Virus record (IMG/VR): IMGVR_UViG_2563366819_000003
Coordinates: 1-55,732 of that record
Strand: one strand, 5' to 3'
DNA: 55,732 nt
Source of the DNA: a virus
Lineage: Duplodnaviria; Heunggongvirae; Uroviricota; Caudoviricetes
How positions within the stretch are numbered: the stretch's first letter is position 1; each line of letters opens with the position of its first letter. A program made the translations under genes and the position numbers. The notes beneath the pieces were generated by a model. It did not search any database, was not told where the DNA came from, and worked only from the letters and a program-made list of their open reading frames with translations. Shown here one piece after another: positions 7,386-36,704 of the stretch.

Positions 7386-7925
7386 ATGCAACCACTTACA
7401 TACCAACAGACTAGCGGATTTAGCCCGACTGCGGTGATAAATCGTTCTCAAACAAAACAGGTGCCAGGCCACGAAAAAATCCGTGATGCCGTCCGCGCCT
7501 GGTCGGCTGTAGATAATCAGGATGTCGTTGCCACACTCATTGTGAATGAGTATCGGGAGCAGGGCGGCGGCACCATCGATTTCCCTGATGATGTCAGCCG
7601 TGCACGCCAGAAGCTGTTCCGCTTCCTCGATAACAAATTCGATTCTGAAAAATACCGAAATAACGTGCGTGAACTGACCCCGGCAATTCTGGCGGTACTA
7701 CCGCTGGAATATCGCGGTTACCTGGTTGAGCAGGATAGCTTCATGGCTAGGTTGGCTGAAATGGAAAAGGAACTCAGTGAGGCAAAACAGGCTGTCATTC
7801 TCAACGCACCACGCCACCAGAAACTGAAGGAAATTAGTGAAGGTATTGTGTCGATGTTTCGTGTGGACCCAGATCTGGCTGGTCCATTGATGGCGATGGT
7901 TACTACCATGCTGGGGGCGATATGA
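7386..7925 (+). CDS. YdaT-like / CII-position regulatory protein
   Basis: 179 aa; segment EYREQGGG...LTPAILAVLPLEYR resembles Rac YdaT (EEYLRQGGG...LIPAILAILPRELR) as recalled; located between cro and O. Confidence 0.55.
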   Translation: MQPLTYQQTSGFSPTAVINRSQTKQVPGHEKIRDAVRAWSAVDNQDVVATLIVNEYREQGGGTIDFPDDVSRARQKLFRFLDNKFDSEKYRNNVRELTPAILAVLPLEYRGYLVEQDSFMARLAEMEKELSEAKQAVILNAPRHQKLKEISEGIVSMFRVDPDLAGPLMAMVTTMLGAI

Positions 7926-8011
7926 CAGGTTCAGAAATGGCGAAAGCCGGTCTGCTGGAACAGAACCGACTTTCAGGTGCAAATCGTAACACACTCATTG
8001 CGGGAGGAATT

Positions 8012-12800: not shown

Positions 12801-13787
12801 AGCGTTAAGTTAACTTTTGTACCAGATGCTGCTTCCGCAGAACTTACTATGAGTACATCAAAACAGCAGATTGTGGCCGATGGTAGTGAAAGTGCAACAG
12901 TGGACATTCAGTTGGTTGATGCCAATAACAATGCGTTTACAGGCGATGTGGATTTAACGGTTACACCATCGACGGGAGCATCATTGACCAGTAGTAAACT
13001 GCAGTTGGATGCTCATGGACAGGCAACAACGCAGTTCACAGCATCGAAATCAGGCCAGTACACAATTCAGGCTGAGTATGTTCTAGATGGGAAACGTATA
13101 ACCGCAAGCAAAAATATTGATGCCGTGACGGATGTGAAGGAGGCTGTGTTGGAGATCACATCATCTGCATCTTCGGCTGTAGTGAGCGATACCAACAATC
13201 TGATATTTACGTTACTGTTGAAAAGTACGTCAGGCGAAGTATTAAGTGGTCGAGTATTGAATATCAAGGCATCTGGGCCGTCCAAATATGGTGCGTTGGT
13301 GGTTGATAAAACCACTGTAACGACTGATGAGTATGGTCTGGCTACGGTAAGCGTACATGGTCGAACGGCTGGTTCGTATAAATTAACGGCGACCTTAGAT
13401 GAACTTGGCAGTGATGTTAGTGAGGTGAAGTCATTCTCTCTGTATGCTGATGAGGCAAATGGAGTATTGACACTGCATAAAGATGGAGGCTATGACACAG
13501 ATGATGGTACTCCAGTGGGGGTTTATGCCCGATTTGTTGACCATTTCGGCAATCCGTTATCTGGTACGGTTGAGTTTTCTGCTGGTAGTGAAGATAGTCC
13601 AAACTCTCAACGGGTTAAAATGGAGCCTGCTACAGTAACGTTACACTGGACAGGTAATGCAGCCTCGGAGTTCAGCACCTATGAAAGCGGTTATCACTGG
13701 ATTAAGGCCAAAATAACGAACAGCAAAAATACATATGAGAAAACAATAAGGACTTATGTTGTAAAGCTCCCTGAAAAGGATAGTTAA
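9879..13787 (+). CDS. Intimin/invasin-family inverse autotransporter adhesin with multiple Big (bacterial Ig-like) domains
   Basis: 1302 aa; N-terminal signal-like segment, beta-barrel region typical of inverse autotransporters (WLQQYGNARIKLNVDD...), then repeated Ig-like modules including a tandem 119-aa duplication; AT-rich upstream region and terminator downstream. Confidence 0.8.
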   Translation: MTTVNKKLKKTASGAITWSVIVTQILSPVSLSLIPANSFASSDNKDVTQIYASDERANKVASFAVSAGQSLANNNASSFAVNTLSTQATKEVVDWLQQYGNARIKLNVDDSFSLKDSSFDFLYPWLDTQDYVLFSQTSLHRTDDRNQTNIGLGIRHFTPDNAMLGANVFYDYDLSRSHSRAGFGVEYWRDYFRLGVNTYFGLSDWKDSRDIDDYLERPANGWDFSAEGWLPAYPQLGASIQFEKYYGKNVGLFGSDNLQENPYAVTGGISYTPVPLIKFSAQHKQGQSNVHDTTFGVEFNYRPGVSLAEQLSSDNVAVMREVQNRRYDFVERNNNIVLEYKKKHALKISLPESVQGDGESIIPVTLTINNASGGIKSVQWNDSVFTAAGGKISGNGTSWQVTLPAYKSEGVNSWNVGATVQDNRGNVSNYAVMNISVINSGVSTADSSFMLDGDSSPTISADGQSTHPIVLSLKDSNGKALTGLADDIEMSVEFTADSNSARQRETVTAPSLGAVEEISAGVYRSVLTAGSQAGTVRVTAKVQGKTFTLNIKQAAVIDSDVSTADSSFTLDGDSSPTISADGQSTHPIVLSLKDSNGKALTGLADDIEMSVEFTADSNSARQRETVTAPSLGAVEEISAGVYRSVLTAGSQAGTVRVTAKVMDKTFTLSIKQTAATEPDSEVSAVLTAAPAEQVVGYNINLQLAVKDSQGNAITGDNTLSFYALNQAEGVEFGAVTEKDGVYSATVTSKRAGKIRIGVKSGSHNFSGIEKEISFIEDRTQFAFSRIEASKNNALADGKQQNTVTVSLADRFGNVVPGYAVTLSLPAGVTQVGGEHAVSTDENGNAVFALISSTPGSYVIKAHAGSQMSTELTVTFASNMIGASLSLTPGNSSLISNIPANGKDAAVLNVQLTNTNASVNGQKIQLITSSEGLSVPTNIVTDSTGHVSVPLTTVRAGEYTVAARVTDGSHSVESGSVKLTFVPDAASAELTMSTSKQQIVADGSESATVDIQLVDANNNAFTGDVDLTVTPSTGASLTSSKLQLDAHGQATTQFTASKSGQYTIQAEYVLDGKRITASKNIDAVTDVKEAVLEITSSASSAVVSDTNNLIFTLLLKSTSGEVLSGRVLNIKASGPSKYGALVVDKTTVTTDEYGLATVSVHGRTAGSYKLTATLDELGSDVSEVKSFSLYADEANGVLTLHKDGGYDTDDGTPVGVYARFVDHFGNPLSGTVEFSAGSEDSPNSQRVKMEPATVTLHWTGNAASEFSTYESGYHWIKAKITNSKNTYEKTIRTYVVKLPEKDS
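11197..11910 (+). repeat. Near-perfect tandem duplication (2 x about 357 bp) encoding a duplicated Ig-like domain within the adhesin gene
   Basis: Sequence from about 11201 (tgtctcgacagcggattcttctttt...) recurs at about 11558 almost identically; encoded peptide VSTADSSF.LDGDSSPTISADGQSTHPIVLSLKDSNGKALTGLADDIEMS... is repeated. Confidence 0.85.
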
Positions 13788-20039: not shown

Positions 20040-20260
20040 TCGGGTCCTTTCCGGCGATCCGACAGGTTACGGGGCGGCGACCTCGCGGGTTTTCGCTATT
20101 TATGAAAATTTTCCGGTTTAAGGCGTTTCCGTTCTTCTTCGTCGTAACTTAATGTTTTTATTTAAAATACCCCCTGAAAAGAAAGGAAACGACAGGTGCT
20201 GAAAACGAACTTTTGGGCCTTTGTCGTTTCCTTTCTCTGTTTTTGGCCGTGGAATGAACA
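20040..20260 (+). other. cos: Helper-phage cos site (cosQ-cosN-cosB); cosN 12-nt cohesive end gggcggcgacct at 20072..20083
   Basis: Sequence cgggtcctttccggcgatccgacaggttacg|gggcggcgacct|cgcgggttttcgctatttatgaaaattttccgg matches lambda cos as recalled; directly upstream of nu1. Confidence 0.88.
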
Positions 20261-20780
20261 ATGGAAGTCAACAAAAAGCAGCTGGCTGACATTTTCGGTG
20301 CGAGTATCCGTACCATTCAGAACTGGCAGGAACAGGGAATGCCCGTTCTGCGAGGCGGTGGCAAGGGTAATGAGGTGCTTTATGACTCTGCCGCCGTTAT
20401 AAAATGGTATGCCGAAAGGGATGCTGAAATTGAGAACGAAAAGCTGCGCCGGGAGGTTGAAGAACTGCGGCAGTCCAGCGAGGCAGATCTCCAGCCAGGG
20501 ACTATTGAGTACGAACGCCATCGACTTACGCGTGCGCAGGCCGACGCACAGGAACTGAAGAATGCCAGAGACTCCGCTGAAGTGGTGGAAACCACATTCT
20601 GTACTTTCGTGTTGTCGCGGATCGCAGGTGAAATTGCCAGTATTCTCGACGGGATCCCCCTGTCGGTGCAGCGGCGTTTTCCGGAACTGGAAAACCGACA
20701 TGTTGATTTCCTGAAACGGGATATCATCAAAGCCATGAACAAAGCAGCCGCGCTGGATGAACTGATACCGGGGTTGCTGA

Positions 20781-20806
<26 letters not shown>
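20261..20806 (+). CDS. nu1: Terminase small subunit Nu1
   Basis: 181 aa, near-identical to lambda Nu1 (MEVNKKQLADIFGASIRTIQNWQEQGMPVLRGGGKGNEV...). Confidence 0.95.
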
Positions 20807-23787
<2,981 letters not shown>

Positions 23788-23864
23788 AACCCTTGCTGCG
23801 TCTGGAATGTCGTTTTCCATGCTTTTGATGACCGTTCATCACCCTTCCAGTTTTTCGCGGTTTT

Positions 23865-23917
23865 GTGTATTGCAATGTGTATTGCAAATTGGCGATCGGG
23901 ATGGGTGTGTATTGCAA
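23865..23917. repeat. Three direct copies of GTGTATTGCAA upstream of satellite integrase (candidate arm-type integrase/regulator binding sites)
   Basis: gtgtattgcaa at about 23865, 23877 and 23907; related copies gtgtattgca / gtgtattgc at 34530..34551 near the other end of the element. Confidence 0.5.
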
Positions 23918-23935
23918 ATCTCTTGAGGGCTTTTA

Positions 23936-25177
23936 ATGGCTATTGAAAACAAACTCAGTGACAAACTGTTAAAGAGTCTTGTCGGAAAACGGCAGGACAA
24001 ACAAAAAACAATAGCGGATGGGCGCGGGTTGTCTGTGCGTGTAAGCATGGTTGGGGGGATCAGCTTTGTTTTTTACTATCGTCTTGGTGGCAGGGAATCC
24101 CCTCCGGTATGGCTTACACTTGGTCGCTATCCTGACATGTCTCTTGCAACGGCCAGGCGCATGCGTGATCAGTGCCGTGAATGGCTGGCTGAAAATCTGG
24201 ACCCCCGCAGGCAAATAAAACTTGCTGCCGAAAAAACTATGCAACCAGTGACCGTAAGGGATGCGCTGTTTTACTGGTACGACAATCACGCCACAACAGC
24301 CAGAAAAGAGCATGAATATTTAATAAAACGATTTGAAAAGCATATCTTCCCCTATATCGGTGATATGGCTATAGAACAGTGCAAATTACACACATGGCTT
24401 ACCGTCTTTGACAGGATCAAAAAAAATGCGCCTGTTATGTCTGGTGCAATTTTTCTTGATATCAAACAGGCGTTGCGTTTTTGTCGCGTCAGGCAATACA
24501 TCGCGTGCGATCCCTTTGGAGATATTAACGTAAGTTATGTCGGGCGCTCATCCGGTATAAGGGATCGCGTTCTTAATATCAATGAAACCGCTGATGTATG
24601 GTCTTATGCTTACGGTAATAATTTGCTAACTCTGTCATCAATATATAACCGAAGAATAATGGTTATCTGCCTGGTGTTTGGTTGCCGACAGCAGGAGGCG
24701 AGGCTATCCACCTGGGACGAATGGGATTTAAAAAACTGGGTATGGACAGTCCCAAAAGAGCACAGCAAAAACAAGGAGGCTATAGTAAGGCCTGTTCCTG
24801 ACGGAATAAAACAATGGATCGTTAATCTTTACGCAGAAACAAAAAATCGCGGTTATGTTGTCGGTTGTGCTTTGCAAAGGGCGACAATAACAGGGGCTGC
24901 AAACAGAATATGCAGGCGTCTTGGTCATGATACTAATGGCTTGTGGTGCATACATGATTTCAGGCGCACATTTTCCACTACGCTTAATGATATGGGGGCG
25001 GATCCTTATATTGTTGAACTTCTTTTAGGTCATAAAGTGAAAGGGGTTGCTGGTGTTTACAATAAAAGCAGGCATATAAAGAAAAAACTTGAGGTGCTTA
25101 ATATGTGGGTTAATTACCTTAATACGATAGCAGGATTTAACAACAACGTTATCGAGCTTAATAAAGAGGTGGTGTGA
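23936..25177 (+). CDS. int: Tyrosine integrase, P4-type
   Basis: 413 aa; C-terminal catalytic region (HDFRRTFSTTLNDMG...LLGHKVKGVAGVYNKS); at one end of the inserted element adjacent to the repeat. Confidence 0.9.
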   Translation: MAIENKLSDKLLKSLVGKRQDKQKTIADGRGLSVRVSMVGGISFVFYYRLGGRESPPVWLTLGRYPDMSLATARRMRDQCREWLAENLDPRRQIKLAAEKTMQPVTVRDALFYWYDNHATTARKEHEYLIKRFEKHIFPYIGDMAIEQCKLHTWLTVFDRIKKNAPVMSGAIFLDIKQALRFCRVRQYIACDPFGDINVSYVGRSSGIRDRVLNINETADVWSYAYGNNLLTLSSIYNRRIMVICLVFGCRQQEARLSTWDEWDLKNWVWTVPKEHSKNKEAIVRPVPDGIKQWIVNLYAETKNRGYVVGCALQRATITGAANRICRRLGHDTNGLWCIHDFRRTFSTTLNDMGADPYIVELLLGHKVKGVAGVYNKSRHIKKKLEVLNMWVNYLNTIAGFNNNVIELNKEVV

Positions 25178-25178
25178 T

Positions 25179-25436
25179 ATGGCAATTTATTCTCTTGTTG
25201 ATGAAAACGATTTGCGCACAATGAAGGACATTGATCGGTTCATTCGTGAAAAAGAGTGCATAGCACTTACCACGCTGGCAAACTCAACACGCTGGAAAAT
25301 GGAGCTAGCAGGTAAATTCCCGCGACGTATCAAGATCGGTGAACGTGCTGCAGGGTATCGACTTTCAGAGGTTCAGGCATGGATCCGTGGTGAGTGGCAT
25401 CCTGGATGGAAACCTGGAAAAACAAAACAGCAATAA
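25179..25436 (+). CDS. alpA: AlpA-family HTH regulator / excisionase-like protein
   Basis: 85 aa; AlpA-like segment LTTLANSTRWKMELAGKFPRRIKIGERAAGYRLSEVQAWI; directly downstream of the integrase. Confidence 0.8.
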   Translation: MAIYSLVDENDLRTMKDIDRFIREKECIALTTLANSTRWKMELAGKFPRRIKIGERAAGYRLSEVQAWIRGEWHPGWKPGKTKQQ

Positions 25437-25492
25437 CCAGTAAATAATGCCCCTCATCACGAGGGGTTTTTTGTCTATAAGGTAAAAACGCG

Positions 25493-26071
25493 ATGAATAA
25501 AAATATTGCCGTGACGGGCAAGGGGTACGCTCGTCCAGTGAAAAAATTCTGCGATATTCGTGATCTCGTCGTTCTGCGCTTTGATAGTGTGAACGTTCGT
25601 GTGGTGTATCTGAACGGCGATCCGTGGTTTGTTGCAAAAGATGTTTGTGCTGCGCTGGAACTAACCAATTCGCGTACGGCGTTGCAGATGCTTGATGATG
25701 ATGAAAAGGGAGTAAATTTAACTTACACCCCAGGAGGAAATCAGAATATGAGAATTATCTCTGAGTCAGGTTTCTACAAACTAATAGCCCGCAGCCGCAA
25801 AGCAACGACGCCTGGCACATTTGCTCATCGTTTCAGTAACTGGGTATTCAGAAATGTGATACCAGGTATCAGAAAAACGGGGACTTATGGTATCCCGTGG
25901 GGTGCATTACAGGATTTTTCCCGCCGTAAAGAGCAATATCAAATAAGTGCCAGCGAGAAGGGGAGGGAGCTACAGGCATGTAAGCGCAAAAAGCGTGAGC
26001 TGGAGGAAGAAGAAAAAACGCTGATACGTGAATATCAGCCTGAGTTTTACTTTGGTAACCGCATTCAGTGA
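25493..26071 (+). CDS. Bro-N domain protein (antirepressor-like)
   Basis: 192 aa; Bro-N-like core (VRVVYLNGDPWFVAKDVCAALEL...ISESGFYKLIARSRK...FSNWVFRNVIPGIRKTGTY). Confidence 0.65.
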   Translation: MNKNIAVTGKGYARPVKKFCDIRDLVVLRFDSVNVRVVYLNGDPWFVAKDVCAALELTNSRTALQMLDDDEKGVNLTYTPGGNQNMRIISESGFYKLIARSRKATTPGTFAHRFSNWVFRNVIPGIRKTGTYGIPWGALQDFSRRKEQYQISASEKGRELQACKRKKRELEEEEKTLIREYQPEFYFGNRIQ

Positions 26072-26404
26072 CAAAACAAAGGCGACCGCAAAAGGGTCGC
26101 CAGTGGGAACAAGGGAAAACAAAAGCATCACCAACAATGCCACATTTGCGGCTGGTGGGCAATGTGATCAGTCAGATTTGGTTCGTTCCAAGGTTTGCAA
26201 CGAGAGCTTTTTCCTGTGCTCTTTAAGGAATTTCTCAAGAGCAAACGAACAAGGTGCGAATCTTTCTGATTCATGTTCATGCGCTATATTTTTGCGTCGT
26301 CTCTTACGAGTTGGTGATGGTGTTTTGGTTGATTCTGTGTCGCTCATGGTGCTGTCCTGTAAAGCAATGCGCCTGCGTTCCTCAAACTATGGCGCTGATA
26401 TTGG

Positions 26405-26710
26405 CTATTCATGCTCTTTGACCTTGCGTCGCTGGAGTTCTTCACGCGCGACGGTGACGAGTTGCCCGATCTCCTCGGCTGCTTTGATGCCGATTTGTTC
26501 GACCTTAGCCAGGGCATCCAGTGACGACACAAGGGGATTTTCTCCGCTGCCTTCTGCTTGGCGGCGGGCTATTTCTCCGCGCATGGCGGTTACGATAAAT
26601 CCGGCATTGCTTTCACCGTCCAGCTTAACGGATTCCATCCCTTGCATAACATCTAGTGGGACTCTGACAGTTGTCAGTTGTGATTTTGCGTTTTTGTTAG
26701 CCGTTGCCAT
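26405..26710 (-). CDS. Hypothetical protein, divergently transcribed from the satellite replication operon (candidate regulator)
   Basis: 101-aa ORF on minus strand facing a promoter-operator-like region; no clear HTH recognised. Confidence 0.4.
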   Translation of the reverse strand: MATANKNAKSQLTTVRVPLDVMQGMESVKLDGESNAGFIVTAMRGEIARRQAEGSGENPLVSSLDALAKVEQIGIKAAEEIGQLVTVAREELQRRKVKEHE

Positions 26711-26770
26711 TTCTGAAACTCCTAATCATCGGTGTGTTTCAGTATACACAAAAAAAGAAATACAAAAAGC

Positions 26771-26809
26771 CTTGACGTGTGTTTCATGCGCTCATAACAT
26801 GAAACACAC
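26771..26809. promoter_or_regulatory. Promoter/operator candidate: TTGACG -35-like hexamer followed by a 12-bp perfect inverted repeat
   Basis: cttgacg tgtgtttcatg cgctcataa catgaaacacac; inverted repeat 26777..26788 / 26798..26809, between divergent genes. Confidence 0.4.
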
Positions 26810-26900
26810 CGAAAGGATTGTTGAAATACAAAGAGCAACGCCCCGCAGTGCTGGGAACACATACGGGGCGTCTAACCAACAACGTAAACTAGGAGCCGTT

Positions 26901-27098
26901 ATGGTTGCTGTAAATCATATACCACACCTTGTACACACACAAACGGCCTTTGTGTGGCGTTTTCTGGCACTGAGTGCCGGAGAATCTCAAATCATCCACG
27001 TAACCGCCTGGACGGAACGCGAAGCGCGTAGCCGTTGCCCGTCCGGTTGTGTTGCTGTATTCGCTGCAAAAATCCGCCAGGGAGTGAGTCATGCTTAA
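26901..27098 (+). CDS. Hypothetical small protein (65 aa), first gene of rightward satellite operon
   Basis: ATG at 26901 preceded by RBS AGGAG (26891..26895); lies at 3' end of a longer, compositionally odd ORF in the track. Confidence 0.35.
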   Translation: MVAVNHIPHLVHTQTAFVWRFLALSAGESQIIHVTAWTEREARSRCPSGCVAVFAAKIRQGVSHA

Positions 27099-27276
27099 AA
27101 CCTTCCGTGTATTTGCCCGAGCTGTTAACCCAATAGGCCACACAATTGGTATCGCTCAGAATGTGAAGGCTGTTAATGTTCAGACGGCTATTGCTGCGGT
27201 GAGAAGCGAATCATCAGAATATGGCTTATCACAAGTCATTATTTCAGCAGTGTATGAATTAAAAGAGGTGCATTAA
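27091..27276 (+). CDS. Hypothetical small protein
   Basis: 61-aa ORF with RBS GGAG upstream, overlapping neighbours by a few nt (translationally coupled operon). Confidence 0.35.
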   Translation: MLKTFRVFARAVNPIGHTIGIAQNVKAVNVQTAIAAVRSESSEYGLSQVIISAVYELKEVH

Positions 27277-27467
27277 TGCAGGAAATTACATTACACGAAG
27301 CCGCTGAACGTGCGCACCAGACAGAAATTATTTGCCGCCTTCTTGAGGTATACCCGAACAAAATTACAGATGCTGATATATCCGCACTGGCGAGCCTACT
27401 GGCGCGTCTTTCGGGAAGTGTCGCTAGTTTTTTGATTGAGGAAGAAAGTAAGCTGGTGGAGGATTAA
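27276..27467 (+). CDS. Hypothetical small protein
   Basis: 63-aa ORF in tightly packed operon. Confidence 0.35.
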   Translation: MQEITLHEAAERAHQTEIICRLLEVYPNKITDADISALASLLARLSGSVASFLIEEESKLVED

Positions 27468-27689
27468 ATGAATACAGAACGGGAAGTCTTTTTTAAATTG
27501 TTAGCATGTGCAGAAAGTTCATTAACTTTAAATAATTCAGCAAAAGCAATATTAAATATGTGGCTTGATTGCATAAATGACAATGAAGATGCAAATATTG
27601 CTTATGGTCTGTTGTCACTTATTGATGAATCAGCAGAAAAACTCAATGACGCAATAAATAGTGCCCTGCTATCAAATAAGTCGAGTTAA
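27468..27689 (+). CDS. Hypothetical small protein
   Basis: 73-aa ORF in tightly packed operon. Confidence 0.35.
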   Translation: MNTEREVFFKLLACAESSLTLNNSAKAILNMWLDCINDNEDANIAYGLLSLIDESAEKLNDAINSALLSNKSS

Positions 27690-27706
27690 GTCGAGGAATA
27701 AATAAT

Positions 27707-28006
27707 ATGGAAATGAAAAATTCTGGCTTTATTGCCAGCGGCCCAGCTCGACCTGAATTTATGAACGGCGATATTTACCGCGATAAATACGGCGGCACGG
27801 TAACGATTAAAGGCGTGGCAGAACGGCGCATCACTTACCGCCGTGAGGGGTATAGCTATGACTGCGTGATGCCTGTTTATCAGTTCCGGCGTGATTTTTC
27901 CCTGGTATATGCCGCACCCCGCAGTAAGCCCATCAGCAGGGAAAAAGCGTGGGGAAATATCCAGAAAATGAAAACCATGATTAACGGATTCAGAGGTAAA
28001 AAATGA
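27707..28006 (+). CDS. Hypothetical protein
   Basis: 99-aa ORF, stop overlaps primase start (ATGA). Confidence 0.4.
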   Translation: MEMKNSGFIASGPARPEFMNGDIYRDKYGGTVTIKGVAERRITYRREGYSYDCVMPVYQFRRDFSLVYAAPRSKPISREKAWGNIQKMKTMINGFRGKK

Positions 28007-29757
28007 AACTGGCACCGAACGTAAAACAGCAGTCACGCGGCATAAAACACAAAGGAACAGAAGTCATTATTTTTGCGGGTAGTGATGCCTGGGCACACGC
28101 GAAACAATGGCAGGAACATGATGCGCGTATGGCCGGAGATAATGAGCCTCCTGTGTGGCTTGGGGAGCAGCAGCTATCCGAACTGGATAATCTGCAAATT
28201 GTGCCGGAAGGCCGAAAATCAGCACGCATATACAGGGCCGGATATCTTGCGCCTGTAATGATAAAGGCGATTGGTCAGAAGCTGGCGGCAGCAGGCGTAC
28301 AGGATGCAAATTTTTATCCTGAGGGTATGCACGGCCAGGAGGTGCAGAACTGGCGCGAATATCTGGCCCGTGAACGCCAGAATCTTTCTGATGGTCTGGT
28401 CATTGAGCTTCCGGTAAAGCAAAAGGCGCAACTTTCGCAGATGGCGGACAGTGAGCGCGCGCAGTTGCTTGCCGATCGCTTTGATGGCGTTTGCGTACAT
28501 CCTGAAAGTGAAATCGTTCACGTATGGCGCGGCGGGGTATGGTGTCCGGTCAGCACAATGGAACTTAGCCGCGAAATGGTGGCGATCTATTCAGAGCACA
28601 GGGCCACTTTCAGCAAGCGCGTAATCAATAACGCCGTGGAAGCGTTAAAAGTTATTGCCGAACCAATGGGCGAGCCGTCTGGCGATTTGCTGCCGTTCGC
28701 CAATGGTGCGCTTGACCTGAAAACGGGGGAATTTTCCCCGCACACGCCGGAGAACTGGATCACCACGCACAACGGCATTGAGTACACGCCACCAGCACCA
28801 GGGGAGAACATCCGCGATAACGCGCCAAACTTTCATAAATGGCTTGAGCACGCAGCCGGAAAAGACCCGCGCAAGATGATGCGTATATGTGCCGCGCTGT
28901 ACATGATTATGGCGAACCGGTACGACTGGCAGATGTTTATTGAGGCCACCGGAGATGGCGGGAGCGGTAAAAGTACATTCACACACATAGCCAGCCTTCT
29001 GGCAGGGAAACAGAACACGGTAAGCGCTGAAATGACATCGCTTGATGATGCTGGTGGACGTGCGCAGGTTGTCGGGAGTCGTCTTATCGTCCTGGCTGAC
29101 CAGCCGAAATATACAGGCGAAGGAACGGGCATCAAGAAAATCACAGGCGGCGACCCCGTGGAAATTAACCCGAAATATGAAAAGCGTTTCACGGCGGTAA
29201 TCAGGGCGGTGGTGCTGGCGACCAACAACAACCCGATGATATTCACCGAACGGGCCGGAGGTGTGGCACGTCGTCGCGTGATTTTCCGTTTCGACAATAT
29301 CGTCAGTGAGGCCGAAAAAGACAGGGAGCTACCGGAAAAGATTGCGGCTGAAATCCCCGTTATTATCCGCCGATTGCTGGCGAACTTTACCGACCCTGAG
29401 AAGGCACGGGCTTTACTACTGGAACAGCGTGACGGTGATGAAGCACTGGCAATAAAGCAACAGACGGATCCGGTTATTGAGTTTTGCCAGTTCCTGAATT
29501 TTCTGGAGGAAGCGCGCGGCCTGATGATGGGTGGCGGTGGTGATTCAGTGAAGTACACGACCAGGAACAGCCTTTACCGCGTCTATCTGGCGTTTATGGC
29601 ATACGCGGGCAGGAGCAAACCGCTAAACGTGGCTGAGTTCAGCAAGGCCATGAAGCCAGCGGCGAAAGTTTACGGGCATGAATATATTACGCGAAAAGTT
29701 AAGGGAGTAACGCAGACCAACGCAATTACAACAGACGATTGCGACGCGTTTTTATAA
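28003..29757 (+). CDS. Primase-helicase (P4 alpha-like; primase domain plus P-loop NTPase)
   Basis: 584 aa; Walker A GDGGSGKST; overall architecture of phage/plasmid primase P4-family proteins; followed by iteron-like repeats. Confidence 0.85.
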   Translation: MKLAPNVKQQSRGIKHKGTEVIIFAGSDAWAHAKQWQEHDARMAGDNEPPVWLGEQQLSELDNLQIVPEGRKSARIYRAGYLAPVMIKAIGQKLAAAGVQDANFYPEGMHGQEVQNWREYLARERQNLSDGLVIELPVKQKAQLSQMADSERAQLLADRFDGVCVHPESEIVHVWRGGVWCPVSTMELSREMVAIYSEHRATFSKRVINNAVEALKVIAEPMGEPSGDLLPFANGALDLKTGEFSPHTPENWITTHNGIEYTPPAPGENIRDNAPNFHKWLEHAAGKDPRKMMRICAALYMIMANRYDWQMFIEATGDGGSGKSTFTHIASLLAGKQNTVSAEMTSLDDAGGRAQVVGSRLIVLADQPKYTGEGTGIKKITGGDPVEINPKYEKRFTAVIRAVVLATNNNPMIFTERAGGVARRRVIFRFDNIVSEAEKDRELPEKIAAEIPVIIRRLLANFTDPEKARALLLEQRDGDEALAIKQQTDPVIEFCQFLNFLEEARGLMMGGGGDSVKYTTRNSLYRVYLAFMAYAGRSKPLNVAEFSKAMKPAAKVYGHEYITRKVKGVTQTNAITTDDCDAFL

Positions 29758-29759
29758 TT

Positions 29760-30010
29760 TTTTGTAAAAGCCATCTACCCCATCTACCTGAACAAAATAA
29801 ACGCATATTATTCAACATGATAAGTGGGTATAGGGCTAGGTAGAAGGCTAATAAAAGCTCTCTACCTCTTCTACCTGATTTTATCAGTTTCAGGTAGCAG
29901 GGTAGACGGCAGGTAGAGGAGTCAAAAAGCTATCTACCCGCTGAAAGCCGCGCCATTACTGACATGATGAGCATTCGGGTAGATGGGTAGAGGGGGGGAG
30001 GCACAACTAA
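29760..30010. repeat. Iteron-like repeats (GGTAGA / TCTACC family) downstream of primase: candidate satellite replication origin
   Basis: Multiple direct and inverted copies: catctaccccatctacctg, ctaggtagaaggc, ctctacctcttctacctg, caggtagcagggtagacggcaggtagagga, gctatctacccgc, gggtagatgggtagag. Confidence 0.5.
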
Positions 30011-30103
30011 AAACTTTTTAAACGAGGGGGGTGAAAATAAATGCGCATACATAAAAATCACTTAACAAACATGCCAGCCGAAGACATGAATCAGGGGTGA
30101 CAA

Positions 30104-30355
30104 ATGACCAAAATTCGCAGAGACAGAACACAGGCAAAATATAAAGCGTTAGACATGACAGAGCTTTCCTTAAAGGTGGCAATCAAAGCGATAGACCACC
30201 ACACACGGGCAGGATACGCGAAGGAACATCCCGATCTGATAAGCGCATTCATGACCACAGCAGCGGCAAACTTTGCCACGCTGACAGAACGGGAGATTGC
30301 CGAAGCGGAACAGGTGACAACCATCAATGTTAAAACCGGAGAGCAGACAGCATGA
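30104..30355 (+). CDS. Hypothetical protein
   Basis: 83-aa ORF upstream of and overlapping the SSB gene start. Confidence 0.35.
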   Translation: MTKIRRDRTQAKYKALDMTELSLKVAIKAIDHHTRAGYAKEHPDLISAFMTTAAANFATLTEREIAEAEQVTTINVKTGEQTA

Positions 30356-30774
30356 CAGCACAGATAGCGGCTTACGGGCGGCTGGTGGCTGACCCGCAGT
30401 TAAAGACCACCAGCAAAGGGACACAAATGGCGATGGCGAGTATGGCGGTTCCCCTGCCGTGCAGCCAGGCAGATGACGGAACGGCGACGATGTGGTTATC
30501 CGTCCTGGCGTTTGGCAGACAGGCCGACGCACTGGCAAAACACCACAAAGGCGAACTGGTGAGCGTGGCGGGTAACATGCAGGTAAGCCAGTGGACAGGC
30601 CAGAACGGCGAAACGCGGCGGGGCTGGCAGGTTATCGCAGACAGCGTAATCAGTGCGCGAACGGCGCGACCGGGCGGCAAAAAAGGCCAGCAGGGGCAGG
30701 CCACTGACGCACTGAACAGGGCAAAACAACAGTCGGGGAATGATGATCCGTACGGCGATAATATACCGTTTTAA
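30352..30774 (+). CDS. ssb: Single-stranded DNA-binding protein (SSB-like)
   Basis: 140 aa; OB-fold-like body, Gly/Gln-rich linker and acidic C-terminal tip ...NDDPYGDNIPF resembling the SSB DDDIPF tail. Confidence 0.7.
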   Translation: MTAQIAAYGRLVADPQLKTTSKGTQMAMASMAVPLPCSQADDGTATMWLSVLAFGRQADALAKHHKGELVSVAGNMQVSQWTGQNGETRRGWQVIADSVISARTARPGGKKGQQGQATDALNRAKQQSGNDDPYGDNIPF

Positions 30775-30985
30775 ATTCTGCAAACAAAAAGATGCCGGAA
30801 AAAAATATATTTTCCGGCATGCTACATAAATCCCGACCAAAGGAAGTAAATACATTAACACGAATTATCAGCACTGAAGTTGTTACGGCATATTTTATAC
30901 AACATTGCACTTGGTTGCATGTATTCGCATAGCAGACATCGGTAATAGAATATATTCACAATTATTTGTAATGAATGTAAAGAGG

Positions 30986-32032
30986 ATGAGTATGGTTGAT
31001 TTATATTCGCCTACACAGCTTGTGCAGGTGGCTAATGCTGAAGATGTGCAAAAAAAATTAAATGCGTTGTTTACCAGTTTGTTTTTCACTCGCTCGGTAA
31101 TGTTTGAATCGAGAGACATTATTCTTGATACGATCGACGATCCAAATATCCCGATCGCGGCGTTTTGCTCTCCTATGGTGGGCAGTAAAGTTTCACGAGA
31201 TGAGGGATACGAATCAAAAACAATTCGTCCAGGTTATATGAAGCCGAAAAGCAGCATTGATCCAAATAAGTTAGCTGTGCGCCCTGCTGGTGTGTCACCT
31301 GAGCAATACAATGCTTTTGGGGCGCGTAATATTAAAGTTAAACAGGCGATTGTAAATCAGGCTAAAGCTATTCGTGCACGTATTGAATGGCTTGCTGTTC
31401 AGGCAATCACAACGGGGAAAAATATCATTGAGGGCGATGGTATTGAACGTTATGAGCTGGACTGGAATATAAAACCACAAAATATCATCACTCAGTCTGG
31501 CGGTACTGAGTGGTCAGGTAAGGATAAAGAAACTTTTGATCCAAATGATGATATTGAGAGCTACGCAGAATTTAGTGAGGGCGTCACTAATATCATCATT
31601 ATGGGTGGTAATGTATGGAAGAAATACCGTTCATTCAGAGCGATAAAAGAGGCTTTGGATACCCGTCGTGGTTCTAATTCCGAACTGGAAACGGCCCTTA
31701 AAGACCTTGGTGATTCGGTGAGTTTTAAAGGGTATATGGGCGATGTTGCGATTGTTGTTTACAGCGGGCGTTATACCGACGAGGACGGAACAGAAAAACA
31801 TTTCCTTGATCCTGATTTGATGGTGCTTGGCAATACGGCTCTTCAGGGGATTGTCGCCTATGGCGGTATTCAGGATCCGGAGCTAATCCGAATGGGGCTG
31901 ACTAAAGCCGAACTTGCACCGAAAAACTATATTGTGCCTGGTGATCCGGCTATTGAATATGTGCAGACACATTCAGCACCACAGCCAATACCGGCCCGCA
32001 TCAATCGTTTTGTTACCGTTCGCATTGGCTAA
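30986..32032 (+). CDS. Major capsid protein, divergent homologue of lambda E
   Basis: Starts MSMVDLY (lambda E MSMYTTA); shares blocks ITQSGGTEWS, DTRRGSNSELETA.KDLG, GDVAIVVYSG with the helper E at 37102..38127 (roughly half identical by eye). Start could also be 30992. Confidence 0.85.
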   Translation: MSMVDLYSPTQLVQVANAEDVQKKLNALFTSLFFTRSVMFESRDIILDTIDDPNIPIAAFCSPMVGSKVSRDEGYESKTIRPGYMKPKSSIDPNKLAVRPAGVSPEQYNAFGARNIKVKQAIVNQAKAIRARIEWLAVQAITTGKNIIEGDGIERYELDWNIKPQNIITQSGGTEWSGKDKETFDPNDDIESYAEFSEGVTNIIIMGGNVWKKYRSFRAIKEALDTRRGSNSELETALKDLGDSVSFKGYMGDVAIVVYSGRYTDEDGTEKHFLDPDLMVLGNTALQGIVAYGGIQDPELIRMGLTKAELAPKNYIVPGDPAIEYVQTHSAPQPIPARINRFVTVRIG

Positions 32033-32041
32033 GGGGGAGCA

Positions 32042-32383
32042 ATGGCTACTCATTACACTGAACTCATGGCTGGCACTGAAGCACTGGTGACTACGCTGGG
32101 GATATTTTCAGCTAATAAAGGGGTAATTCCTGCATTTACGCCACTGATGCAGGAAGATGCAACAGGTGCACTGGTGATATGGGATGGTTCGAGCGTAGGT
32201 AAAGCGGTTTATGTTTCCGCTGTACAAATCGACACAGCGAAAAAAACACAGGCACAGGTTTATAAGACAGGTGTTTTAAATGTTGATGCTCTGAACTGGC
32301 CTGAGTCTGTAAAAGAACTGTCGGCAAAGGTTGCCGCGTTTGTTGGCTCAGGTATTTCTGTTCAGCCGCTGGCTCGTGTGTAA
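32042..32383 (+). CDS. Head decoration protein, lambda D-like
   Basis: 113 aa, directly downstream of the E-like gene (same order as D-E reversed in lambda); similar size and pattern to gpD (FTPLM..., ...AV...GTAISV-like C-terminus). Confidence 0.65.
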   Translation: MATHYTELMAGTEALVTTLGIFSANKGVIPAFTPLMQEDATGALVIWDGSSVGKAVYVSAVQIDTAKKTQAQVYKTGVLNVDALNWPESVKELSAKVAAFVGSGISVQPLARV

Positions 32384-32394
32384 AGGGGGATACA

Positions 32395-32778
32395 ATGCAG
32401 AATCATTACAATGACCTTAAGCCAATTGCCGAAATGATGTATCCGGATCCAGCAGTAGAGGAATTAAAGGCTATTGCTGACAAAATGCGTTTAAGTGAAC
32501 GCCTTGTTGATATGAATCAGGTGATGGAACTTACTACCCTTAGCCGTCGCACATTGCTAAACCTTGAGGCTCGCGGAGAGTTCCCCGAACGCGTACAGGT
32601 TACGGAAGGGCGTAAGGCCTGGTATTTAAGTGAAGTGATCGACTGGATAAACAATATTCCTCGATCTTCTGAATATTGCCGCGTACCTGTCCCAAAAAAG
32701 CCAGATGCGGCGCTATGCCTCAAGATTGAGCGTGTACGTCGCAATGCACGGGATGGTCGCTATAAGTTGATTGGTTGA
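32395..32778 (+). CDS. AlpA-like HTH protein (second copy in element)
   Basis: 127 aa; segment LTTLSRRTLLNLEARGEFPERVQVTEGRKAWYLSEVIDWI has the AlpA-family pattern. Confidence 0.55.
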   Translation: MQNHYNDLKPIAEMMYPDPAVEELKAIADKMRLSERLVDMNQVMELTTLSRRTLLNLEARGEFPERVQVTEGRKAWYLSEVIDWINNIPRSSEYCRVPVPKKPDAALCLKIERVRRNARDGRYKLIG

Positions 32779-32799
32779 TGAAATTAGGGCCTGTTCTGG

Positions 32800-32875
32800 C
32801 TGGCGGGTCCTTTCCGGCGATCCGGTAGGCTACGGGGCGGCGACCTCGCGGGTTTTCGCTATTTATGAGCCTTTT
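32800..32875 (+). other. cos: Satellite cos site: cosQ/cosN identical to helper (cosN gggcggcgacct at 32835..32846), downstream cosB-side sequence divergent
   Basis: gggtcctttccggcgatccggtaggctacggggcggcgacctcgcgggttttcgctatttatga matches helper 20042..20106 except for a short patch; sequence after atttatga differs completely from helper. Confidence 0.85.
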
Positions 32876-32994
32876 TCGGGTGCTGGTGGTGGTTTTGTTG
32901 TTCGCTCTATCTCTATGAATAAAAAGGAAAAGATAAAGCCAATACACCAACCTGAAACATTACTTAAGTGGGGATATTGATGAAATCGCACCTG

Positions 32995-33522
32995 ATGAAC
33001 AAAAAAAACATGGCGCAAAGCTGCCGTGTAAGTGCGACAGCGTTCGACAAGTGGGGAGTGACTCCCGTTGAACGTAAAGGCCGCGAGGCGTTTTATGATG
33101 TTGCCAGCGTAATAGACAATCGGGTTAGCAATGCAATTAACCAGATTACAGACGACAAAGGCGAGATTGATGATGATGAACTCCTACGAGTCAGGATCAG
33201 ATTGCTGACAGCACAGGCAGAGGCGCAGGAGCTTAAAAACGAGCGCGAACGCGGCGACGTTATTGATACAGCGTTTTGTATATACGTGCTTTCAAAATTG
33301 GCGAGTCAGATTTCTTCAATCATGGACAGCCTGCCGCTTGCCATGACAAGGAAGTTTCCCGACATGAAGCCGTCTATGCTGGATGGACTGAAAAAAGAAG
33401 TTATCAGAGCCTGTAACGCATGCGCAAAACTTGACGAAAACATACCGCTGATGCTGTCCGATTATCTGATGGAAACTGCCGGAAACGTACCGGATAAGTT
33501 GCAGCCGAATAAAGATAAGTAA
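32995..33522 (+). CDS. Terminase small subunit, Nu1-like with divergent N-terminal DNA-binding domain
   Basis: C-terminal two-thirds resembles Nu1 (ELKNERERGDVIDTAFCIYVLSKLASQISSIMDSLPLAMTRKFP... vs helper ELKNARDSAEVVETTFCTFVLSRIAGEIASILDGIPLSVQRRFP...); N-terminal about 50 aa differ. Start chosen at MNKKNMAQ. Confidence 0.8.
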   Translation: MNKKNMAQSCRVSATAFDKWGVTPVERKGREAFYDVASVIDNRVSNAINQITDDKGEIDDDELLRVRIRLLTAQAEAQELKNERERGDVIDTAFCIYVLSKLASQISSIMDSLPLAMTRKFPDMKPSMLDGLKKEVIRACNACAKLDENIPLMLSDYLMETAGNVPDKLQPNKDK

Positions 33523-33533
33523 CGTAGTACGCT

Positions 33534-33815
33534 ATGACTGAATCCGAAATACTGCGATTAATCCGCCGTGCTTGTGGAATCAGCAAGCAGCATGACGAAC
33601 AGGCCACGCAGCCGGACAGCGTGACCGCAGATAATTATGTGCGTGTAGTGGCTGAGGTGATGCGCCGTGACGGTATTGAGCTTAACGGCGTGGATATGCG
33701 CAACATACGAACAAGAGTCCTTGAGTTGCTGGCATATCGTCGCCGTTCTCAACAACGGAGGGAGAGCGCGAAAAATACTTACCAGTGGAAGAAGCCGGAA
33801 CGATTGCGGCGGTAA
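33534..33815 (+). CDS. Hypothetical basic protein
   Basis: 93-aa ORF immediately after TerS; Arg-rich C-terminus. Confidence 0.35.
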   Translation: MTESEILRLIRRACGISKQHDEQATQPDSVTADNYVRVVAEVMRRDGIELNGVDMRNIRTRVLELLAYRRRSQQRRESAKNTYQWKKPERLRR

Positions 33816-33824
33816 CTTGCTGAT

Positions 33825-34222
33825 ATTCCCGATAACGCAAAATTGCGCTGGCTGACTTGTTGCATTGCAAAAAGTTAAGCAGGAAGGCACGGCCTGTAAG
33901 ATGGGATGCAGTAAGTAGTTCAAGGCTACCTTGTGCTGGCACGCACAGTTAAGCCGTCGGTGCTGGATATCCCCCACTGGGGGAAAAGCTGGCTACATCC
34001 CTCACATCTGAGGACTGATAACGCGACATTGCGCTGGCTGGCAAAGTGCAAAATTGCACGATGGCCTAACCCATTGATTATTTCGAAAACCTGCAATGCA
34101 GGAAATCGGGGAAGTAAGCCTAAGCTATTGATTGTTTCGAAAACCCCCATTGGGGGATGTCGGGAAAGTAAGACTAACCCATTGATTCTTCCACAATCCT
34201 CAATTTGAGGAGGCCGGAACGT
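33825..34222. repeat. Array of short hairpin-forming palindromes with differing stems in an ORF-poor region
   Basis: cgcaaaattgcg (about 33834), cccccactggggg (33971..33983), cctcacatctgagg (34009..34022), gtgcaaaattgcac (about 34055), cctgcaatgcagg (34100..34112), cccccattggggg (34154..34166), cctcaatttgagg (34207..34219); three share a flanking motif attgatt..ttcgaaaac. Confidence 0.45.
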
Positions 34223-34630
34223 CTACATAGCTGCATCGCCGTAATGATGATTCAGCCCACCAGCCAAATCAGCACAGCAACGACAGAATAGCCCGACACA
34301 GAAAAACCACGAATATGGGGTTTTTGTTATGACATGGTCATGATGACCACTCATACAAAACAGGTAAAGCCCACCAGCCTGATTAAAGGTTAACCGGAAA
34401 AAAGCCAGGTATCCAATCTCGATATGGGGATCCCTATATCGACATTAACGCTCACTAAAACTGTGCATATATGCATAGAAAAAGCATCCACCAGCTTTAT
34501 GACGGATGCCGCTCATCTTATAAATAATCGTGTATTGCAGTGTGTATTGCGACTCCTTTAAACGATAGGTCTGAGCATTCGTAATGTACTGTTTTTAAAT
34601 TTTATTTTTTCCTGTCTTTTCATAAAGGCG

Positions 34631-35404
34631 ATGTATGCCGCCACCATTGAGAGTGAGCTGGATACGCAGTCAGCGATGGATTTTATTCTGGGCGCGAACA
34701 GTCAGGAGCAGCGGGAAAGGCTGACCGGCTGGATTGGTGAAATTGCCGCGTATTACGCCGCAGCGCCGGTCCGGCTGGGAGGCGCAAAAGTACCGCACCT
34801 GATGCCGGGTGACTCACTGAACCTGCAGACGGCTCAGGATACGGATAACGGCTACTCCGTGTTTGAGCAGTCACTGCTGCGGTATATCGCTGCCGGGCTG
34901 GGTGTCTCGTATGAGCAGCTTTCCCGGAATTACGCCCAGATGAGCTACTCCACGGCACGGGCCAGTGCGAACGAGTCGTGGGCGTACTTTATGGGGCGGC
35001 GAAAATTCGTCGCATCCCGTCAGGCGAGCCAGATGTTTCTGTGCTGGCTGGAAGAGGCCATCGTTCGCCGCGTGGTGACGTTACCTTCAAAAGCGCGCTT
35101 CAGTTTTCAGGAAGCCCGCAGTGCCTGGGGGAACTGCGACTGGATAGGCTCCGGTCGTATGGCCATCGATGGTCTGAAAGAAGTTCAGGAAGCGGTGATG
35201 CTGATAGAAGCCGGACTGAGTACCTACGAGAAAGAGTGCGCAAAACGCGGTGACGACTATCAGGAAATTTTTGCCCAGCAGGTCCGTGAAACGATGGAGC
35301 GCCGCGCGGCTGGTCTTAAACCGCCCGCCTGGGCGGCTGCGGCATTTGAATCCGGGCTGCGACAATCAACAGAGGAGGAGAAGAGTGACAGCAGAGCTGC
35401 GTAA
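34631..35404 (+). pseudogene. B: Portal protein B, C-terminal fragment (257 aa), in frame with N-terminal fragment if the insert is removed
   Basis: MYAATIESELDTQSAMDFILGANSQEQ... continues lambda B exactly where the 22906..23735 fragment stops. Confidence 0.9.
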
Positions 35405-36704
35405 TCTCCCGCATATTGCCAGTATGGCCTTTAATGAGCCGCTGATGCTTGAACCCGCCTATGCGCGGGTTTTCTTTTGTGCGCTTGCAGGCCAGCTTGG
35501 GATCAGCCGCCTGACGGATGCGGTGTCCGGCGACAGCCTGACTGCCCAGGAGGCACTCGCGACGCTGGCATTATCCGGTGATGATGACGGACCACGACAG
35601 GCCCGCAGTTATCAGGTCATGAACGGCATCGCCGTGCTGCCGGTGTCCGGCACGCTGGTCAGCCGGACGCGGGCGCTGCAGCCGTACTCGGGGATGACCG
35701 GTTACAACGGCATTATCGCCCGTCTGCAACAGGCTGCCAGCGATCCGATGGTGGACGGCATTCTGCTCGATATGGACACGCCCGGCGGGATGGTGGCGGG
35801 GGCATTTGACTGCGCTGACATCATCGCCCGTGTGCGTGACATAAAACCGGTATGGGCGCTTGCCAACGACATGAACTGCAGTGCAGGTCAGTTGCTTGCC
35901 AGTGCCGCCTCCCGGCGTCTGGTCACGCAGACCGCTCGGACAGGCTCCATCGGCGTCATGATGGCTCACAGTAATTACGGTGCTGCGCTGGAGAAACAGG
36001 GCGTGGAAATCACGCTGATTTACAGCGGCAGCCATAAGGTGGATGGCAACCCCTACAGCCATCTTCCGGATGACGTCCGGGAGACACTGCAGTCCCGGAT
36101 GGATGCAACCCGCCGGATGTTTGCGCAGAAGGTGTCGGCATATACCGGCCTGTCCGTGCAGGCTGTGCTGGATACCGAGGCTGCAGTGTACAGCGGTCAG
36201 GAGGCCATTGATGCCGGACTGGCTGATGAACTTGTCAACAGCACCGATGCGATCACCGTTATGCGTGAGGCACTGGATGCACGTAAATCCCGTCTCTCAG
36301 GAGGGCGAATGACCAAAGAGACTCAATCAACAACTGTTTCAGCCACTGCTTTGCAGGCTGACGTTACTGACGTGGTGTCAGCGACAGAGGGCGAGAACGC
36401 CAGCGCGGCGCAGCCGGACGTGAACGCACAGATCACCGCAGCGGTTGCGGCAGAAAACAGCCGCATTATGGGGATCCTCAATTGTGAGGAGGCTCACGGA
36501 CGCGAAGAACAGGCCCGCGTGCTGGCAGAAACCCCCGGTATGACCGTGGAAACGGCCCGCCGCATTCTGGCCGCAGCACCACAGAGTGCACAGGCGCGCA
36601 GTGACACTGCGCTGGATCGTCTGATGCAGGGGGCACCGACACCGCTGGCGGCAGGTAACCCGGCATCTGATGCCGTTAACGATTTGCTGAACACACCAGT
36701 GTAA
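35385..36704 (+). CDS. C: Capsid assembly protease/scaffold C (Nu3 scaffold encoded in-frame in 3' portion)
   Basis: Matches lambda C from (M/V)TAELRNLPHIASMAFNEPLML...; start is GTG at 35385 overlapping B end. Confidence 0.88.
   Translation: MTAELRNLPHIASMAFNEPLMLEPAYARVFFCALAGQLGISRLTDAVSGDSLTAQEALATLALSGDDDGPRQARSYQVMNGIAVLPVSGTLVSRTRALQPYSGMTGYNGIIARLQQAASDPMVDGILLDMDTPGGMVAGAFDCADIIARVRDIKPVWALANDMNCSAGQLLASAASRRLVTQTARTGSIGVMMAHSNYGAALEKQGVEITLIYSGSHKVDGNPYSHLPDDVRETLQSRMDATRRMFAQKVSAYTGLSVQAVLDTEAAVYSGQEAIDAGLADELVNSTDAITVMREALDARKSRLSGGRMTKETQSTTVSATALQADVTDVVSATEGENASAAQPDVNAQITAAVAAENSRIMGILNCEEAHGREEQARVLAETPGMTVETARRILAAAPQSAQARSDTALDRLMQGAPTPLAAGNPASDAVNDLLNTPV

Follow-up and report, generated by a model that had tools for sequence, protein, structure and literature searches.

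The Roi protein of phage HK022 reportedly binds within its own gene beside a site for integration host factor (IHF), which is said to stabilize the complex. Satellite P4 carries sites for proteins of its helper, with P2 Ogr acting at the Psid and PLL promoters and P2 Cox boxes lying at PLL. Titration loci are represented by E. coli datA for DnaA, which includes an IHF site, and by the incA iterons of plasmid P1 for RepA, and the RIP/BIME-1 elements of E. coli are repetitive palindromic elements bound by IHF. To our knowledge, the cross-talk between phage-inducible chromosomal islands (PICIs) and their helpers runs entirely through proteins: derepression by helper proteins, redirection of capsids and packaging, and carried defence genes. 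The present study concerns the 0.8-kb right end (positions 33816 to 34624) of a PICI satellite inserted in a lambdoid prophage, in the 55,732-nt IMG/VR virus record IMGVR_UViG_2563366819_000003, whose full length (55.7 kb) is referred to as the window. By homology, three tandem units in this region are orphan derivatives of the Roi/IHF module of phage roi genes. With slightly better than even confidence, the region is interpreted as a cis-acting patchwork of DNA sites centered on orphan Roi/IHF operators, which would dock helper Roi or act as a decoy for it.

The three tandem units, already noted in the original prediction, are 54 bp each (Table 1), units 2 and 3 being 80% and 61% identical to unit 1, respectively. 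BLAST comparison with phage genomes places units 2 and 3 inside roi/antirepressor genes of lambdoid and Stx phages (60 phage records), in antisense orientation and with identities of 90.6% and 96%. The matched products combine an N-terminal Rha-type helix-turn-helix (HTH) with a C-terminal KilAC/ANT domain, and the matched segment corresponds to roi codons ∼43-60, just past the HTH. According to hand counts on the alignments, the core of all three units is ∼89-97% identical to the cognate allele, and over the aligned 50 nt the identity is 78-86% to the cognate allele versus 60-78% between sibling units. Homology to roi is limited to the stretch from the palindrome to the IHF core; the ∼14 nt left over in each unit form a satellite-specific linker. 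The copied segment is the one that varies most between roi alleles, rather than the nearly invariant stretch downstream of it, which fits class-specific operators, and the three units are predicted to be the operators of three Roi classes. For unit 1, the counterpart is HK022 itself, where roi with 200 bp on each side contains a single IHF consensus, ∼10 nt downstream of CCTGCATTGCAG, the unit-1 palindrome.

Read on the minus strand, each unit consists of a palindrome of 13-15 bp, a spacer of 9-10 nt (A/T-rich in units 1 and 2) and then AATCAAnnnnTTA. The IHF core WATCAANNNNTTR is perfect at 34067, 34121 and 34175 and is preceded by a 5' A/T-rich tract, the spacer before it on the consensus strand reading TTTTCGAAA(T/C) in units 1 and 2 and TTGTGGAAG in unit 3. 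Only six perfect matches to this consensus occur on both strands of the window, and half of them (3/6) are the units, on one strand, in one phase and 54 bp apart. E. coli satellite units whose palindrome is perfect leave 9-10 bp between it and the IHF site; in most Xenorhabdus units, this gap measures 10-11 bp. Among satellite units, per-column conservation peaks in two places, the outer CC/GG of the palindrome and the IHF core (TAA....TTGAT). A conserved IHF site and a fixed gap are properties of duplex DNA and thus favor DNA sites. The original prediction had left the choice between structured RNA and a set of protein-binding or decoy sites; for the tandem units, homology to the roi module, the perfect IHF consensus at a fixed gap and, in phages, the correspondence of palindrome class and predicted Roi helix point to the latter, and structured RNA gained no specific support. 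A search of the window for roi or Rha homologues returned the array as its sole match, and the putative operators of the array are therefore orphans, located in non-coding DNA rather than within the roi gene of a phage that makes the cognate Roi.

Phage roi alleles, gathered from IMG/VR with a DNA pattern and a protein profile, link the palindrome to the protein. Among the distinct alleles with the IN.LG motif, every one (28/28) retains the IHF consensus and a palindrome in the same place. The inner three palindrome positions vary between alleles one-to-one with the predicted recognition helix, a helix assigned solely from the Rha-family HTH pattern: RHDNVKRTIETL accompanies the palindrome CCTCAAATTGAGG, NVK[VI]SI[DE]RL accompanies CCTGCATTGCAGG, RHDKVKQSIERL accompanies CCCCCAATGG[GT]GG, NVKRAIERL accompanies CCTCCAATGGAGG, and QH[KS]DVKRSIERL accompanies [GC]CGCCAATGGC. 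The association persists over differing flanking backgrounds, and it suggests a recognition code in which the helix residues after 'VK' would set half-site positions 3-5. When 36 distinct phage and satellite units were aligned to assess dyad symmetry, complementary cells made up 94.9%, compared with 32-52% in slid controls, and compensatory changes at half-site positions 3-5 account for 34 cells; none of the 500 shuffles (0/500) reaches these values. A PDB sequence search with the Roi N-terminus as query returned no informative structure. One IMG/VR roi allele (L342) carries a 25-bp perfect palindrome with 12-bp arms, CAACTTCCACCAATGGTGGAAGTTG, at codons ∼43-52, the operator position in the coding sequence.

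Each unit resembles the HK022 Roi/IHF site in having a dyad-symmetric site ∼10 nt from an IHF consensus. Unlike the HK022-type site, which occurs once, embedded in the reading frame of its regulator, and is presumably autoregulatory, the array comprises three tandem copies of differing specificity, in non-coding DNA of an element lacking a Roi gene. In function, the array would most resemble the helper-protein sites of P4 and the datA-like titration loci. As in P4, satellite DNA would hold sites for DNA-binding proteins made by the helper, putatively reading or exploiting the helper's state; however, the P4 sites lie in defined promoters with shown activation, whereas the array has no evident promoter, copies an internal operator of the helper and stacks several specificity classes. 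Like datA and incA, which sequester or modify a DNA-binding protein, it consists of clustered operator-like sites with no adjacent regulated gene, but those loci serve one protein of their own replicon, and the array would bind proteins of foreign phages belonging to several classes. RIP/BIME-1 elements share short extragenic palindromes around an IHF site, yet REP palindromes are longer, differ in sequence, are chromosomal and intergenic, and are unrelated to roi; no similarity was seen. A search of the literature on PICIs found no description of such arrays. In the text of the publication on helper-embedded PICIs (HE-PICIs), the type to which the whole element belongs, the terms 'hairpin' and 'palindrom' are absent, IHF has one unrelated mention, and no roi-derived units are described (PMC10111431).

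These comparisons suggest how the array could work. When a Roi-making phage is active in the cell, IHF would bend each unit and class-matched Roi dimers would bind, making the satellite a multi-specificity docking platform for helper Roi, with a docking capacity that would rise after satellite replication. The preferred consequence is titration, in which a decoy sink would favor the lytic development needed by the satellite. Titration is favored because Roi is described as a DNA-binding inhibitor of lytic growth, and because the satellite replicates after induction. A role in sensing, as a switch, is about equally possible. A wider generalization can be put forward tentatively, and we consider it doubtful as it stands: enterobacterial satellites may carry expandable, modular DNA decoys, each copying the self-operator and IHF site of one Roi class, which would soak up Roi of any lambdoid phage active in the cell, increasingly so after satellite replication, and lift the lytic brake or re-time it to the satellite's advantage. 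If the decoy interpretation is true, satellites would interfere with helpers through operator mimicry rather than through protein or RNA, and Roi would gain a function and the Rha-type domains a recognition code. Stacked orphan operators taken from the gene of a helper regulator would be a DNA-level means of reading or blunting the helper. They would also offer a handle on the Roi/Rha-KilAC proteins, which are very common in lambdoid and Stx phages and whose function is almost unknown. Furthermore, unannotated PICI right ends are dense in cis-acting sites (Chi, operators, arm sites), which is relevant to satellite annotation and engineering.

Several points weigh against a docking or decoy platform for Roi. 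Some divergent roi alleles lack the palindrome, the IHF consensus, or both. In roi, ∼40 nt separate the helix from the palindrome, so that their association could partly reflect linkage by descent, and the palindrome is equated with the Roi operator as the simplest reading, an equation that we infer. The part of the host prophage in the window has no roi, and the presumed ligand must therefore be supplied by another phage. The effect could go in either direction, decoy and sensor being about equally possible. Finally, in E. coli satellites with readable flanking genes, the units are antisense to roi and co-oriented with the late operon. This last point counts toward an explanation at the RNA level, in which the array would be the 3' tail of the late operon, and the hairpin RNA would pair with codons ∼43-60 in helper roi mRNAs belonging to three allele classes, silencing or processing them, or would act as some other regulatory RNA. 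The ∼90-97% complementarity of the cores to the roi sense strands, the terminator-like hairpin ∼75 bp downstream of the array, and the covariation of the stems are all consistent with such a role, as is the folding of the region, which is better than that of shuffled sequences. RNA structure prediction, one of the checks proposed in the original prediction, gave no strand-specific signal, since the minus strand (z = −4.1) folds as well as the plus strand (z = −4.6), as any palindromic DNA would; the individual hairpins are weak (−1 to −10 kcal/mol). In the proposed covariance check over homologous units, the stems do covary, and this is equally expected for any family of dyad-symmetric operators. 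In imperfect copies from relatives, mismatches are A-G and C-T with a single G-T, without a G-U bias. No Rfam 15 covariance model matches positions 23000-35500 on either strand at E ≤ 1, and a scan of both strands of the region called no promoter except one directed out of attR, none being obviously controllable by the array. An antisense element would also reach more helpers through the nearly invariant part of roi than through stacked allele-specific segments, and it explains neither why roi homology ends at the palindrome-to-IHF core nor why the IHF consensus, a DNA feature, stays perfect, with the gap fixed, in each of the three units (3/3). An RNA-level role is thus considered unlikely.

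The units could instead be decaying roi fragments left by recombination between satellite and phage, without a selected role. They do stem from coding sequence, an open minus-strand frame still runs across them in the window, the last unit of two relatives (L202 and L203) runs ∼22 nt further into roi homology, and capture of phage DNA by satellites is known (PMC10111431). Debris would not be expected, however, to retain always the same ∼40-nt core, to stack differing allele classes in phase with a satellite-specific linker, or to recur in another genus and in satellites whose integrases differ. In the window, the units show perfect palindromes and a perfect IHF consensus, with a unit-2 palindrome more symmetric than its nearest phage match (CCCCC/GGGGG vs CCACC/GGGGG), and conservation among satellites is highest at the IHF core and the outer CC/GG, all of which makes decay quite improbable. 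The original prediction had also mentioned integrase accessory sites, which holds for the last ∼100 bp, where the doubled TGTATTGC motif lies, and not for the rest of the region. A role for the IHF sites and palindromes in the attP/attR intasome, or as targets through which an excisionase (AlpA) controls excision, would agree with the position of the array in the attR-proximal non-coding arm, with IHF as a common intasome cofactor, and with the central place of excision timing in HE-PICI biology (PMC10111431). It is nevertheless very unlikely: the array is 400-560 bp away from the crossover, the published arm motif, 81 bp from the attP centre, differs in sequence, satellites with other att sites and arm repeats (the clpS PICI L005) share the array, as does the dinD island, and three palindrome classes are hard to square with a single excisionase. 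Least probable of all, to the point of being remote, is a role in replication, as an origin or a cis-acting region in which the palindromes would serve as iterons for a helper initiator or the satellite primase-helicase. The region is repeat-rich and has IHF sites, its palindromes superficially resemble lambda O-binding iterons, and the leader 19-mer described below forms four tandem iteron-like copies in a large open reading frame (ORF) of an unrelated viral contig. However, iterons of one initiator should match, and the stems here differ by class; PICI origins are reported beside primase/SSB genes (PMC10111431). Mimicry of the helper origin was rejected, the O gene region of the resident prophage having no similar palindromes.

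The search for further copies, which had been proposed as a check, covered 5426 complete E. coli genomes; 1201 contain some of the 809 bp, and 48 contain most of it. Leader and array recur near the right end of other satellites, including an HE-PICI in a prophage capsid gene and a PICI at clpS with different arm repeats, as well as in an island adjoining dinD. The shared module consists of a conserved leader of ∼60 bp with two GCAAAWTTGC palindromes, followed by 1-3 units whose class and number vary; an additional unit class matches the QHSD-type roi allele. In IMG/VR, the leader 19-mer AGTGCAAAWTTGCACKATG stands before the array in ∼20 distinct satellite versions. Unit spacing is mostly 54 bp (∼five helical turns), with 44 and 55 bp also seen. 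A pattern scan of genome contigs gave mainly chance matches, those in Xenorhabdus and Serratia being the informative ones. Xenorhabdus genomes contain analogous units in ORF-poor, palindrome-rich stretches, where CTAACCCATTGATT is followed by GGTCAnTTTGACC, and related cores by CCTCACTTTGAGG. The ORFs flanking the Xenorhabdus units have no Pfam matches, and how the array is oriented with respect to transcription units is therefore not comparable across genera. One such stretch, at ∼2930-3700 of L080 (Xenorhabdus anantnagensis) and also present in L010, L041 and L078, is ORF-poor and has four units of IHF site plus palindrome; it adds three palindromes of the CCTCTTAAAGAGG type and two GTCAGCCAGACTGAC palindromes and resembles the E. 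coli satellite end. Outside satellites, the leader 19-mer AGTGCAAAATTGCACGATG occurs as the four tandem iteron-like copies mentioned above, in a 405-aa ORF without a Pfam match (∼9990-10080 of the unrelated IMG/VR contig L212), and twice in another group of viral contigs (L210, L214, L216 and L217). A putative protein would bind GTGCAAAWTTGCAC.

Beyond the array, the region is crowded with palindromes. The seven listed in the original prediction were all found: cgcaaaattgcg (33836-33847), cccccactggggg (33971-33983), cctcacatctgagg (34000-34013), gtgcaaaattgcac (34046-34059), cctgcaatgcagg (34090-34102), cccccattggggg (34144-34156) and cctcaatttgagg (34198-34210). The perfect 15-bp palindrome tggtcatgatgacca exists as well, 2 bp further right than had been claimed, at 34335-34349. 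The view that the hairpins are not random is borne out: counted with stems ≥5 and loops of 2-4, they number 12 in the region, compared with 2.3 ± 1.5 (maximum 8) in 500 mononucleotide shuffles of it, and this count is the highest among all 809-bp segments across the 55.7 kb. Three leader-like modules share the plan palindrome, CTGGCTG, palindrome, with differing stems, and a leader like that of copy A also precedes the array in other satellites. Both the palindrome TGGTCATGATGACCA and the 32-bp near-palindrome at 34415 were found again in other satellites. The terminator-like hairpin was not picked up by a consensus terminator scan. A type III toxin-antitoxin locus (ToxI-like) was rejected, as the units are only 61-80% alike and no toxin-sized ORF follows, and so was a CRISPR-like array, the repeats being too dissimilar and partner genes lacking.

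The ORF-poor character that had been claimed for the region is confirmed by a 99.9% identical RefSeq locus, which has no annotated coding sequence from the last satellite gene to the portal fragment. Two ORFs of 91 aa (plus strand) and 74 aa (minus strand) are unsupported as genes, the minus-strand translation having no Pfam match. On the minus strand, a frame with Roi-like 18-mers is open for ∼100 codons, but it lacks a start codon ahead of unit 2; the unit spacings of 44 and 55 bp in L006 and L107 break the frame and exclude its conservation.

Table 1. Coordinates of the features of the satellite right end, with related satellite genes and Chi sites of the window.
Feature	Position	Strand	Description
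Integrase gene of the satellite	23936-25177		tyrosine type
Nu1-like TerS gene of the satellite	32968-33522		
Last satellite ORF	33534-33815		93 aa
Leader-like module, copy A	33831-33870		palindrome CGCAAAATTGCG 33836-33847, CTGGCTG, palindrome TTGCATTGCAA 33860-33870
Leader-like module, copy B	33918-33950		degenerate; palindromes CAAGGCTACCTTG and TGTGCTGGCACGCACA; repeat, 75% to 34020-34047
Palindrome TCCCCCACTGGGGGA	33970-33984		half-sites of the unit-2 class; no IHF consensus adjoining; inverted repeat with unit 2
Palindrome CCCTCACATCTGAGG	33999-34013		half-sites of the unit-3 class; 4-nt centre; no IHF consensus; kept in L004, L208 and L215
Leader, copy C	34017-34063		CGCGACATTGCG 34022-34033 (imperfect), CTGGCTG, GTGCAAAATTGCAC 34046-34059; directly before the array
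Unit 1	34064-34117	-	IHF consensus AATCAATGGGTTA 34067-34079, 10-bp gap, palindrome CCTGCAATGCAGG 34090-34102; HK022 class
Unit 2	34118-34171	-	IHF consensus AATCAATAGCTTA 34121-34133, 10-bp gap, palindrome CCCCCATTGGGGG 34144-34156; VT2-Sakai/HK629 class
Unit 3	34172-34225	-	IHF consensus AATCAATGGGTTA 34175-34187, 9-bp gap, palindrome TCCTCAATTTGAGGA 34197-34211; phi330 class
Chi site (GCTGGTGG)	34257-34264	-	inside repeat AGCCCACCAGCC
Terminator-like hairpin	34298-34327	+	AAAAACC..GGGGTTTTT then GTT; −8.6 kcal/mol
Perfect 15-bp palindrome TGGTCATGATGACCA	34335-34349		variant TGGTCATAATGACCA in L136 and L199
Chi site	34371-34378	-	
32-bp near-palindrome AATCTCGATATGGGGA/TCCCTATATCGACATT	34415-34446		in a module adjoining the array also in L005, L136 and L199
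Palindrome TGCATATATGCA	34464-34475		
Chi site	34488-34495	-	
Doubled integrase-arm-type motif cgTGTATTGCagtgTGTATTGCg	34529-34553	+	published HE-PICI attP motif, 81 bp before the attP centre
attR crossover (approximate)	34620-34630		interrupted portal gene resumes as ORF 34631-35404
Chi sites of the window	26151, 27452, 29050, 30381, 32882	+	
Chi sites of the window	28789, 30407, 34257, 34371, 34488	-	

The window corresponds to a lambdoid prophage (cosN at 20072, terminase at 20261-22706, O and P at 7922-9639) whose portal gene is interrupted by an insert of ∼10.7 kb, with breaks at ∼23.8 and ∼34.6 kb. From its gene content and borders, this insert is a HE-PICI, a satellite type described by Tommasini, Mageeney and Williams in 2023 (PMC10111431). 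Published features of HE-PICIs are Integration, Bro, Replication and Late zones and a doubled TGTATTGC motif ∼81 bp before and ∼132 bp after the attP centre (PMC10111431). The insert is likewise a tyrosine-integrase element that lies within a prophage late gene, in the same orientation, and it has the four gene zones. Pfam identifies the integrase, AlpA, a Bro-N protein, a D5-type primase-helicase (D5_N), a lambda-E-type capsid protein, a D-type decoration protein (HDPD) and a Nu1-like TerS; an AlpA-like HTH protein is encoded as well. The diagnostic doubled motif tgTGTATTGCantgTGTATTGCa is present near the right end, with copies at 34531 and 34543, and has its partner in attL at 23866 and 23878. 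The approximate attR crossover follows from the position of this published arm motif by the 81-bp rule. The original prediction had placed the region between the last satellite ORF and the right att site; both borders were confirmed, the right one from the HE-PICI arm motif, and the 0.8-kb region is exactly the non-coding right arm of the satellite. A third arm-type copy of TGTATTGC lies at 23908, 30 bp past the doubled motif in attL; the publication mentions doubled motifs only. The satellite cosN, GGGCGGCGACCT (32835-32846), has the same sequence as the prophage cosN (20072-20083) and lies just upstream of the satellite's TerS gene, outside the right-end region, in which a cos site is thus ruled out.

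The region also contains three exact Chi sites (5'-GCTGGTGG-3'), each held on the minus strand within a copy of the repeat AGCCCACCAGCC (at 34254, 34368 and 34485). They lie 1.4-1.65 kb from the cosB end and are oriented for recognition by RecBCD arriving from that end, which would be consistent with a putative attenuation of RecBCD. All ten Chi sites of the window (10/10) fall in the ∼10.7-kb satellite, compared with none in the ∼45 kb of lambdoid prophage, and one of them is only 36 bp from the satellite cosN. This distribution suggests that the satellite depends on Chi against RecBCD. Lambda is not known to have Chi sites, and its Gam protein inhibits RecBCD.

Two further features concern the prophage side. 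In the nin region of the host prophage, directly after O and P, a 1302-aa ORF (9879-13787) encodes an inverse-autotransporter/invasin-like protein (Pfam IAT_beta, Big_1 and Invasin_D3), an adhesin that is probably cargo (a 'moron'). The E. coli genome CFSAN064035 is nearly identical, but there an IS621 element of the IS110 family additionally splits the major capsid gene of the helper prophage (18037-19017 of L001), and this composite prophage is probably defective.

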